Shown here: positions 15,107 through 42,643 of the stretch, piece by piece
How positions within the stretch are numbered: the first letter of the stretch is position 1
Layout of the letters: every line of letters starts with the position of its first letter
Position numbers and translations under genes: made by a program
Assembly: GCF_006345805.1 (NCBI RefSeq)
Contig: NC_043007.1
Span: 71,548,001 to 71,612,000, forward strand
From: Octopus sinensis
Taxonomy: Eukaryota
Reading direction: 5' to 3'
DNA length: 64,000 nt
Notes under the pieces: generated by a model
Told to the model about the DNA's origin: nothing
Seen by the model: the letters and a program-made list of their open reading frames with translations, nothing else
The model's database searches: none

Positions 15107-15700
15107 ATACAGTTCTATATTTAAGAGATGAGAAATTATTTACATTTTACAGATATTTGTCCTCATCTTGTTTGTTGTTAACACAATGTTTTGGCTGATA
15201 TACCCTCCAGCCTTCATCAGGTGTCTTGGGGAAATTTTGAACCTAGGTTCTCATTCCTAAGTATTTTTCAATGTTATTATAATTATAGAATAGAACTCGG
15301 AATCTTGGGGTTAGTAGTCTGCACTCTTAACCACTATGCCATATGCCAGTGGGCAATTATGGAGTGAATTTTAGAGCTTATAAATCTAATATTTTCCTAT
15401 CCTTCCTTTATATCAACTCCCTTATGCTATTCATATCTGCACTCGATCTGCTTAGGAGTTTGTTGTGTCCTAGCATGTGCTGCTTCTTTTAGTTTTCGTA
15501 CTTTCCAGTGGTGTTCTTCATAATTAGAGTGGATAGTATGTTTTGGGGGTAGTTGTTGCTTAATAGCTTGTTATTGAGCTTGATCATTTCTTCGTGGTGT
15601 ACTGATCACAATCACAACTTATATTCTTTGCTTGATATTTCAGGCACTAAGCAATCCATCTTTTTAGTGTATGAATATCTCACTCATGTTAGACAGAAGT
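15107..15700 (-). mobile_element. Penelope-like element 3' remnant with tRNA-like segment and HHR
   Basis: HHEEMIKLNNKLLSNNYPQNIL (RT thumb/linker-like) and EEHHWKVRKLKEAAH (GIY-YIG C-terminus-like), then tRNA-like boxes and HHR. Confidence 0.65.
15181..15224 (-). ncRNA. Hammerhead ribozyme motif, degenerate (GAAA to AAAA)
   Basis: ACAC-CTGATGA-aGGCTG..CAGCC-AAAA-CATT-GTGT; related copies near 18533-18574 (-) and 18863-18906 (+). Confidence 0.65.
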
Positions 15701-18065: not shown

Positions 18066-18495
18066 GGAGAAGTTCATAGAAACAGATTAAAATTAATGTA
18101 GCTTATAAGAAATGATATTAAGATAATTAATAAGATAGGGGTGTCAGAACAGAGGTAATCATTTTTTTTATTGATAGAGATAAAAGACATTTAAAATAAT
18201 AATGTACTTTTAACATGTTTAATCTTACTTGCACTCAGTTAAGAATATAAATATTGGTTTCAAAGGTCAGCAAGTTCAGGTGAAGGGTTAAGTTGATTAC
18301 ATCAACCCTTAGTATTCAAGTGGTACTAATTTTATTGACCCCATAAGGATGAAAGGCAAAAATCAACCTCTGCAGAATTCAAACCCAGAATGTAAAGATG
18401 GATGAAATGCCACTAAGCATTTTACCCAGCGTGCTAGTGATTCTGCCAGCTTGCCACCTTAGTTAAGAATATAAATATTATAGTATAATCAAGAT

Positions 18496-18978
18496 TATTT
18501 ACAATTGACGGATAGGTGTCCTCACATTGTTTGTTGTTTCAGCTGATGTACTCTCCAGCCTTCATCAGGTGTTCTGGTGGAATTTCAAATCCAACCTTTC
18601 ATTCAACTAATGGGGTACACCATTCTCATTCCTAAGGTATGTTGCTGATGTTATTTTTCTGTTGATATTACTTTCTTTTTCAAGTCCCTGCTTGGGATTG
18701 AACTTAGAATCCGAGGGTTAGTAGCCTACGCTCTTATCCACTATGCTATATGCCCAAAGGCATATAATATCAATAGAAAAATAACATCAGCAACATACCT
18801 TAGGAATGAGAACGGTGTACCCCATTAGTCAAATAAAGGGTTGGGTTTGAAATTCCACCAGAACACCTGATGGAGGCTGGAGAATACATCAGCCGAAACA
18901 TTGTGATAACAAATAAGGCAAGGACACATTCATCCATTGTAAATAATATACATAATTACTTGTCTCAAAAATATAGAA
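18496..18978. mobile_element. ORF-less inverted derivative of the tRNA-HHR element
   Basis: Inverted arms around a tRNA-like head (18685-18755, -); TSD tagt(a/g)taatcaagat at 18481-18495 and 18979-18993. Confidence 0.75.
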
Positions 18979-19114
18979 TAGTGTAATCAAGATAACTTGA
19001 AAGTTTTTGTATAATCAAAGCAAACTTTGGGAGCATACAAATTAATTCAATAATCATCCAGTTCACCTCAATCAACTGATATACTTTCAAGAAATTTAAT
19101 TAATACTTTACAAG

Positions 19115-35963: not shown

Positions 35964-36290
35964 ATATATATATATATACATGAAAATATTATTGACCACA
36001 TATCCACGTATACTTAATGTATATGCTTTGTGTATTCCACTGACAGGGTGCGATCTCATGTGGTGGAGAATATTCCCTCAAAGTACCAGGTGTTAAAATA
36101 CCTGCAAGTCATGGACAGTCGAGATAAGTCAACTCAAATCCTATTCAAGAATGACGGACATCAATGTTTTGTTATTTTTGTGGCTTATCAACACCATGTA
36201 CTCGAGCCAAACCCAAGACGCATACACAAACACATATATGTAAGCATTTCAAAAAACAATTACTTAGAAGAAAATTGTTTCACAACTTAC

Positions 36291-42551: not shown

Positions 42552-42643
42552 TCTCGCATAGCTCAGTCTGTAGAACATCAGACTTTTATATACTGACATT
42601 GGAAGTTATCTGAGGGTCGCGGGTTTGAGTCCCTCTGCGGGCG
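42552..42643 (+). tRNA. Intron-containing tRNA-Lys(UUU), probably a pseudogene
   Basis: TAGCTCAGTC..TAGA.CATCAGACTTTTA, 19-nt insert (42589-42607), then ATCTGAGGGTCGCGGGTTTGAGTCCCTCTGCGGGCG; mismatches in acceptor stem, D arm and T loop. Confidence 0.8.

Follow-up and report, generated by a model that had tools for sequence, protein, structure and literature searches.

A degraded Penelope-like element of Octopus sinensis whose terminal repeat carries a tRNA-derived head, a likely Pol III promoter

The window analyzed here, a stretch of 64,000 nucleotides of Octopus sinensis DNA, contains on its minus strand a degraded copy of a Penelope-like element (PLE), the parts of which are collected in Table 1. 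Inspection of the sequence and its alignment to a family consensus recovered the whole order proposed in an earlier, sequence-only reading, namely, the end of the RT thumb with the start of the linker, the C terminus of a GIY-YIG endonuclease, a tRNA-like module, a hammerhead motif, and a tail. The peptides named in that reading are indeed PLE remnants: they align to an 835-aa RT/GIY-YIG frame, for which the Pfam model RVT_1 finds a match on a real copy (E value, 1e-9). The copy is truncated at 15676, and its thumb/linker remnant, which contains one stop codon and one frameshift, corresponds to a segment that sits about 372 to 376 bp farther upstream in longer copies of the family. The internal deletion, at whose junction a few bases of microhomology are seen, eliminated the bulk of the linker and the GIY-YIG core; the sequence 3' of it shows 88% identity to the family consensus with small frameshifts. 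Because the B box and the GAAA of the hammerhead core each bear one substitution and 14 nt are missing behind the B box, this copy is probably dead. No TSD was recognized by eye around the copy, Rfam scored neither a tRNA nor a hammerhead motif in it or in four better copies, and ARAGORN reported zero tRNAs in the whole 64-kb window.

Table 1. Parts of the PLE copy and of the neighboring subfamily B insertion in the window
Feature	Position	Strand	Basis and remarks
Whole PLE copy	15676-15109	minus	Alignment to family consensus; 5'-truncated and internally deleted
Remnant of RT thumb end and linker start (aa 613-664 of 835)	15514..15676	minus	blastn (87% nt) and tblastn against consensus
Junction of 376-bp internal deletion	15514..15517	minus	Consensus alignment
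Endonuclease C-terminal remnant (aa 790-835)	15516-15381, stop codon 15380-15378	minus	Consensus alignment
Putative transcription start zone (-7..0 ahead of head)	15348..15355	minus	5' limit of solo copies
tRNA-derived head	15286..15348	minus	A box 15341-15331, B box 15298-15288; short variable region
TAA-repeat spacer	15272..15285	minus	Subfamily A only; spacer of subfamily B nonrepetitive
ATG opening the 835-aa frame in full-length tandem copies	15252..15254	minus	Consensus ORF
Type I minimal hammerhead motif	15181..15224	minus	Sequence and consensus; pattern as described in PMC4209133
pLTR end (15135) and PLE "tail" (to 15109)	15109..15135	minus	Tail is a continuation of the N-terminal coding sequence
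Solo pLTR of sister subfamily B, beginning at the tRNA head, with hammerhead	18494..18755	minus	89% to B consensus, 68% to A
Second arm of that subfamily B insertion, inverted and head-to-head with the first; comprises spacer, hammerhead, and tail	18764..18979	plus	

The consensus unit of the family spans about 2,646 nt and comprises the head, the spacer, an ATG at +109, the hammerhead within the first codons, the 835-aa frame, its stop codon, and 30 nt leading to the next head. In this consensus, which was pieced together from copies elsewhere, RT and GIY-YIG share a single uninterrupted frame; the longest stop-free stretches in real copies reach up to 385 aa. The copy samples used throughout comprise the top 30 (or 20) of 40 scored matches per search, which is not a random draw and is biased toward well-preserved copies. 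The ATG is placed inside the terminal repeat (pLTR), 109 nt past the head start, and the frame reads across the hammerhead and the tail, which specify the N-terminal 51 aa of the PLE protein; the tail runs on into the ORF in L137 and in 24 other N-terminal loci. A homology search returned 233 homologues, and nearly all of the 120 listed carry RVT_1 together with PF26215. The C-terminal domain displays a CxC between the GIY and YIG motif halves and downstream His residues, which is the PLE endonuclease pattern; EN+ PLEs are described as having a C-terminal GIY-YIG domain with a CCHH finger and two Cys between GIY and YIG (PMC8557442). A structure model of the homologous region of one copy (L122) is closest to the catalytic domain of I-TevI and to T4 EndoII (probability 0.97, with a weak E value of 0.26), and the Pfam GIY-YIG model finds no match on the family fragments but does match two homologues (P0020 and P0117). 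Further traits of EN+ PLEs are present, i.e., pLTRs arising from partial tandems, inverted 5'-truncated arms, and an optional tail (30 to 40 bp in PLEs). Since the RT-EN linker of the consensus is without the extra Zn-finger-like motif of Neptune and Nematis (clade definitions as given in PMC8557442), the element is probably a Penelope/Poseidon-type PLE, a placement made by these definitions. In keeping with this, a CxxC-type motif is absent from that linker and is found in the linker of a second PLE family of the same genome. This second, young family (L323-L331 and L335; e.g., L325:1589-3956, plus strand) is about 29% identical to the main family and has open frames of up to 789 aa, a Cys-rich, Neptune-like linker, and a normal content of T runs. 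In L325, a simple hammerhead-core pattern gave no match within 900 nt behind the ORF.

The diverged second copy that the sequence-only reading had placed near 18496, with the same linkage of head and hammerhead, is present as well (18755-18494, minus strand) and belongs to a sister subfamily, here called B. Subfamily B keeps the head and the ATG, with an in-frame insertion of 27 nt behind the latter, and its frame differs from that of subfamily A by 54 synonymous versus 33 nonsynonymous codon differences over 501 codons. The accompanying argument against chance nesting is strengthened by the 2.72-Gb genome at large, where first-look totals, from which 40 candidates were scored in each search, amount to 3632 candidates for head plus hammerhead and 2539 for the ORF end.

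The position of the head is fixed at 30 nt past the stop codon and 109 nt ahead of the ATG of the next unit. When the head alone (67 nt) is used as the query, 27 of the 29 nonself copies run on into the hammerhead, in the same or the inverted arm, and the other two break off in the TAA spacer, where they enter two unrelated repeats. This continuation and the constancy of the junction with the ORF indicate that the head is integral to the pLTR rather than a nested SINE. Of the 29 head-bearing copies, 27 lack ORF sequence. Such copies are what one would see if an independent tRNA-SINE of the Sm-alpha kind, consisting of head and hammerhead, merely lay beside PLE fragments in the window, and tRNA-derived SINEs with hammerheads have been described in Schistosoma. 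However, the junction between ORF end and head is identical in the 96 copies collected (a pool in which the choice of queries favors ORF-linked copies), recurs in 7 of 29 subfamily B loci, and is spanned by contigs in four organisms (A, B, D, and E); moreover, the hammerhead and tail of the supposed SINE belong to the coding sequence of the PLE protein. The fixed junction and the in-frame ATG largely refute an independent SINE, which we consider extremely improbable.

That the head derives from a tRNA is indicated by its score of 61 against host tRNAs, above all 300 shuffles (maximum, 51). Of the seven isotypes sampled, two share the top score for subfamily A, Arg(TCT) and Gln with 61 each, and Arg leads for subfamily B. 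The Ser-like identity suggested earlier finds no backing, as the variable region is short, without a long variable arm; a pattern search for a host tRNA-Ser gave no match. The row that nominally ranked highest, labeled Thr, was excluded because it is the element itself in a fold-back copy. Sequence covering the ORF end plus 170 nt or more behind it was available for 36 of 80 foreign loci of PLE relatives, and none of these 36 shows A and B boxes behind the ORF; relaxed ARAGORN searches of foreign PLE loci returned only noise. Because all 36 relatives are without these boxes, the head is, by this comparison of sequences, a lineage-specific gain. Other tRNA-like sequences also occur in the vicinity. 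An Rfam tRNA match at 42552-42643 (plus strand; 32.4 bits) resembles the host tRNA-Lys(TTT) apart from an insertion in its anticodon loop; it is probably a pseudogene, and another repeat follows it. Three more tRNA-headed, SINE-looking repeats whose bodies, by eye, are unlike the PLE lie on the minus strand at about 14270-13960, 16920-16810, and 18460-18280. Genes for tRNA-Gln form clusters elsewhere (L401-L404 and G000:C5:18021231-18027496), including a tandem array with a spacing of about 197 to 199 bp.

The ends of the copies speak to the function of the head. Of the head-selected copies, 27 of 29 begin at -7 to +3 relative to the head, with a mode at -7, and none begins at -8 to -54. The same 5' wall is seen with a hammerhead-only query, which does not select for the head: among the 28 loci that remain after removal of the query's own locus and one duplicate, 7 end before +16, and 19 of the other 21 stop within +16 to -12 (binomial P of about 4e-14, with a chance per copy of 0.15 taken from the downstream truncation rate). 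Copies that do pass the head decay gradually along the ORF. A hard wall 13 to 14 nt ahead of the A box is the trace expected of a Pol III start at type 2 promoters, and we consider it probable on this ground that Pol III starts at the head. Trimming by RNase P as the cause of these 5' ends was rejected, since the ends reach -7 rather than 0. A TATA-like stretch (15384-15378, minus strand) lies over the stop codon, about 25 to 30 nt before the putative start, in both subfamilies; it could be an upstream TFIIIB element.

A 5-bp near-palindrome at -7 to +4 (15355-15344, minus strand) overlaps the putative start zone and can inflate the -7 class among folded-back copies. Its presence would allow a different origin of the wall, in which a tRNA or simple SINE was once inserted in the pLTR as a mere passenger, and the copies end where RT stalls or folds back at the near-palindrome or at a coincident Pol II start. 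The near-palindrome does cover exactly the interval in question, several copies fold back there, and the TAA spacer of subfamily A resembles the tail of a retroposon. However, seven copies without fold-back (L062, L063, L070, L073, L077, L078, and L081) still start at -2 to -7, and a stall would be expected at the 3' foot of the hairpin rather than at its 5' edge. Further, the A and B boxes are perfect in the consensus and have stayed intact in both subfamilies though arms and spacer differ, and no TSD was recognized by eye around the head. A passenger head is accordingly given a low probability, and a Pol III start at the head remains our preferred explanation of the wall. As a separate observation, several insertions fold back exactly on the near-palindrome at the putative 5' end of the RNA, which suggests snap-back priming of the second strand.

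At the other end, 75 of 99 arm ends fall at two 3' sites, +232-237 and +262-263. In inverted pairs the 3' end is found on each arm, as would be expected if both nicked strands prime; PAc, the PLE of Anolis carolinensis, is reported to extend both strands (PMC11167929). Direct tandems are represented by one short case without a head (L097/L098) among 59 loci, and the rest are solo or inverted. At 30 N-terminal loci, the upstream pLTR begins at the head in 3 (L149, L150, and L168), as it also does in L321; it is truncated internally in 17, of which four or five look like duplicates of one insertion; and none was detected in direct orientation in 6. In the remaining 4 (L152, L157, L165, and L166), the upstream repeat extends beyond the head into the previous ORF end, and some template RNAs must therefore have begun farther upstream.

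The sequence-only reading had envisaged a SINE-like RNA moved by a PLE rather than a LINE, and the short copies raise the question of whether such a lineage exists in its own right. The proposal that short, head-started units are copied by the PLE machinery agrees with the two fixed 3' ends and the head-to-head arms. There is no sign, in contrast, of a SINE lineage apart from the autonomous element: a single consensus describes the 82 solo and the 96 ORF-linked copies (non-CpG divergences, 4.3% and 5.5%, respectively), and no diagnostic non-CpG variant separates them after correction (three nominal P values of 0.025 to 0.044 among about 200 positions), a comparison that is blind to recopied solo copies if no master lineage became dominant. 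Because no variants distinguish them, the short SINE-like copies appear to be solo pLTRs of the autonomous element, with no separate SINE lineage detectable. Most simply, they are read as cDNAs whose priming took place at the first pLTR-ORF junction and which ran off at the 5' end of the RNA. As they carry the predicted promoter, solo copies could themselves be recopied.

The hammerhead consensus consists of a helix I of 4 bp, the core, a helix II of 5 bp, and a palindromic 6-nt helix III/loop; the core, helix II, and the palindromic helix III are present in both subfamily consensuses. No covariation was seen in it, and it gave no Rfam match. Minimal type I hammerheads with a palindromic helix III in metazoan PLEs are reported to cleave poorly as monomers (PMC4209133), and in PAc, hammerhead cleavage needs protein and insertion does not need cleavage (PMC11167929). 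By analogy with PAc, the hammerhead here is probably dispensable for insertion. Processing of a short RNA by the ribozyme, as postulated earlier, is not supported by the copies: 11 of 83 arm ends lie near the predicted cut (177-184), a weak excess defined post hoc (P of 0.012 versus uniform) that is accompanied by a similar pile at 141-145. The breakpoints of truncated arms pile up at +139 to +145 and +178 to +183, i.e., on both strands of helix I, which might reflect structure-dependent pausing or ribozyme cleavage. Elsewhere in the window, a weak match to the Rfam model Hammerhead_HH9 (36135-36209, minus strand; 22.5 bits; E value, 0.47) is AT rich, has no core motif, and is probably due to chance.

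For a copy in which the ORF is followed by a pLTR, the template has to be an RNA that begins upstream and extends over the ORF, the following head, and the tail. The sense strand of the consensus has zero TTTT in 2,910 nt, along with 15 TTT runs and 33 runs of four or more A; for this one consensus, the P value of zero TTTT is 0.025 under codon shuffling, 0.007 under base shuffling, and 0.003 with third-position weighting. TTTT is taken here as the Pol III terminator and may not be the octopus terminator length. GGGG is likewise absent, at a low expectation (P of 0.28). As controls, all 10 copies of the second young PLE family have frames with 3 to 9 T4 runs each (expected, 1.8 to 8.5), and 20 foreign PLE frames of at least 400 aa have 143 T4 runs versus 123 expected, with one foreign frame (L226) also free of T4 runs where 1.7 are expected. 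In subfamily B the P value is 0.12; B is 93.5% identical to A and not independent of it, and the query mostly returned A copies. The absence of TTTT is what Pol III reading through the entire element would call for, without proving it, and full-length Pol III transcription through the ORF might occur, at odds we place just below even.

An uncapped Pol III RNA with an upstream frame of two codons is a poor mRNA. This difficulty would vanish if the labor were split, such that Pol III makes only short head-started RNAs (from solo pLTRs or from the fronts of full elements) that the PLE protein would copy in trans in the manner of a SINE, and Pol II makes the ORF RNA via host read-through or a separate pLTR promoter. 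Such a division accounts equally well for the 5' wall, and it agrees with the four N-terminal loci that reach upstream of the head; furthermore, the internal promoter of Drosophila virilis Penelope and of Chlamys-3 is described as overlapping a 5'-UTR intron, with H3K4me3 in Chlamys-3 (PMC8557442). It leaves the absence of TTTT across the whole ORF unexplained, however, and with solo-specific variants lacking, nothing points to a short lineage that replicates on its own; we therefore rate a split of labor as unlikely, though deserving of attention. In RNA-seq reads of a related organism (E), the whole element is covered, deepest in the pLTR, equally on both strands and mostly into unrelated flanks, with no pile of read starts at the head; this pattern fits read-through from host transcripts. 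Contig depth shows a 3- to 4-fold step near the head in four runs, a measure that cannot rank the parts of the element.

Taking these findings together, we propose as the likely explanation that the window contains a truncated and deleted copy of an autonomous Penelope/Poseidon-type PLE, in whose pLTR the head with its A and B boxes acts as a Pol III promoter and sets the 5' end of the RNA. To judge from the sequence layout, the head occupies the expected promoter site of the whole protein-coding element, 109 nt ahead of its ATG, a point absent from the sequence-only reading. Pol III would start about 6 nt before the head; the element protein, if it acts as described for PAc (PMC11167929), would nick both strands, prime reverse transcription internally at two sites, and copy toward the 5' end of the RNA. 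Priming at the first pLTR-ORF junction would yield SINE-like solo pLTRs of 240 to 270 bp, often as head-to-head pairs, and priming at the downstream pLTR would yield ORF-containing copies such as the one in the window. Less certainly, one Pol III transcript might span the ORF from end to end, as the lack of TTTT would permit. In its boldest form, the proposal is that an autonomous retrotransposon switched to a tRNA-type Pol III promoter for its full-length RNA, purged its 2.5-kb ORF of terminators, and produces, through internal priming, thousands of SINE-like units that copy its 5' tip, so that one element is both "LINE" and "SINE"; we advance this tentatively, as somewhat less than an even chance.

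The accepted view assigns Pol II (or cotranscription by Pol I) to autonomous retrotransposons and Pol III to SINEs. A PLE with a tRNA promoter ahead of its ORF would, if true, break this split and raise the question of how an uncapped Pol III RNA gets translated. Hammerheads and promoters in PLE pLTRs are already known (PMC8557442 and PMC4209133). A PLE with a tRNA-derived head or a Pol III promoter was not found in the literature searched, and two cephalopod repeat papers, in the parts available, do not describe this family; Repbase, Dfam, subscription journals, and the supplements of PMC13282606 and PMC8557442 were outside the scope of the search and may list it. The sharp ends of the copies provide genomic support for internal and two-strand priming, so far reported in vitro for PAc (PMC11167929). 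It is likely that the solo pLTRs would be annotated as SINEs or tRNA pseudogenes.

Several known systems offer parallels. The tRNA-derived SINEs (SINE2) have an A/B-box head at their exact 5' end, a length of 240 to 270 bp, and thousands of copies. In contrast to these, the body here is the coding start of the element, and since it encodes the N terminus of the PLE protein, the noncoding, nonautonomous character of tRNA-SINEs is not shared; the 3' ends lie at internal priming sites of the PLE kind, and a distinct lineage was not detected. Among PLEs of the Penelope/Poseidon clade, a likeness is seen above all to PAc, which is described as having a single ORF with RT plus a GIY-YIG domain at the C terminus, an ORF start inside the pLTR and within the hammerhead, whose cut site lies among the first codons, a pair of neighboring 3' ends separated by about 30 nt (the "tail" between two internal priming sites), and tandem and inverted arrangements; the available text on PAc mentions no tRNA-derived head, and a promoter in the pLTR is only assumed there (PMC11167929). 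A small-RNA-derived Pol III promoter inside a terminal repeat is reported for the TRIMp3 elements Cassandra, Helenus, and Ajax, which are nonautonomous LTR elements of 0.3 to 1.3 kb and whose autonomous partners, like those of Pol III-driven TRIMs in general, are argued to depend on Pol II (PMC10886601); the present element, in contrast, is a protein-coding PLE of 2.6 kb. Sm-alpha (related to tRNA-Gln) and Sj-alpha of Schistosoma are short repeats, present in high copy number, that combine a tRNA-derived Pol III promoter with a type I hammerhead; they are described as noncoding, SINE-like, and without a link to an ORF (PMC2770079, PMC6765202, and PMC8490949), whereas here the two together form the terminal repeat of an autonomous element, whose N terminus they encode. 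Animal non-LTR retrozymes are likewise short, pLTR-derived hammerhead elements moved by PLEs, but they are defined by tandem arrays, and a tRNA is never named in the text available (bioRxiv 10.64898/2026.07.22.740005); the copies described here are mostly solo or head-to-head and are tRNA headed. The family might thereby illustrate, in concrete form, how repeats that join a tRNA and a hammerhead, such as Sm-alpha, and the retrozymes could arise from an autonomous PLE.
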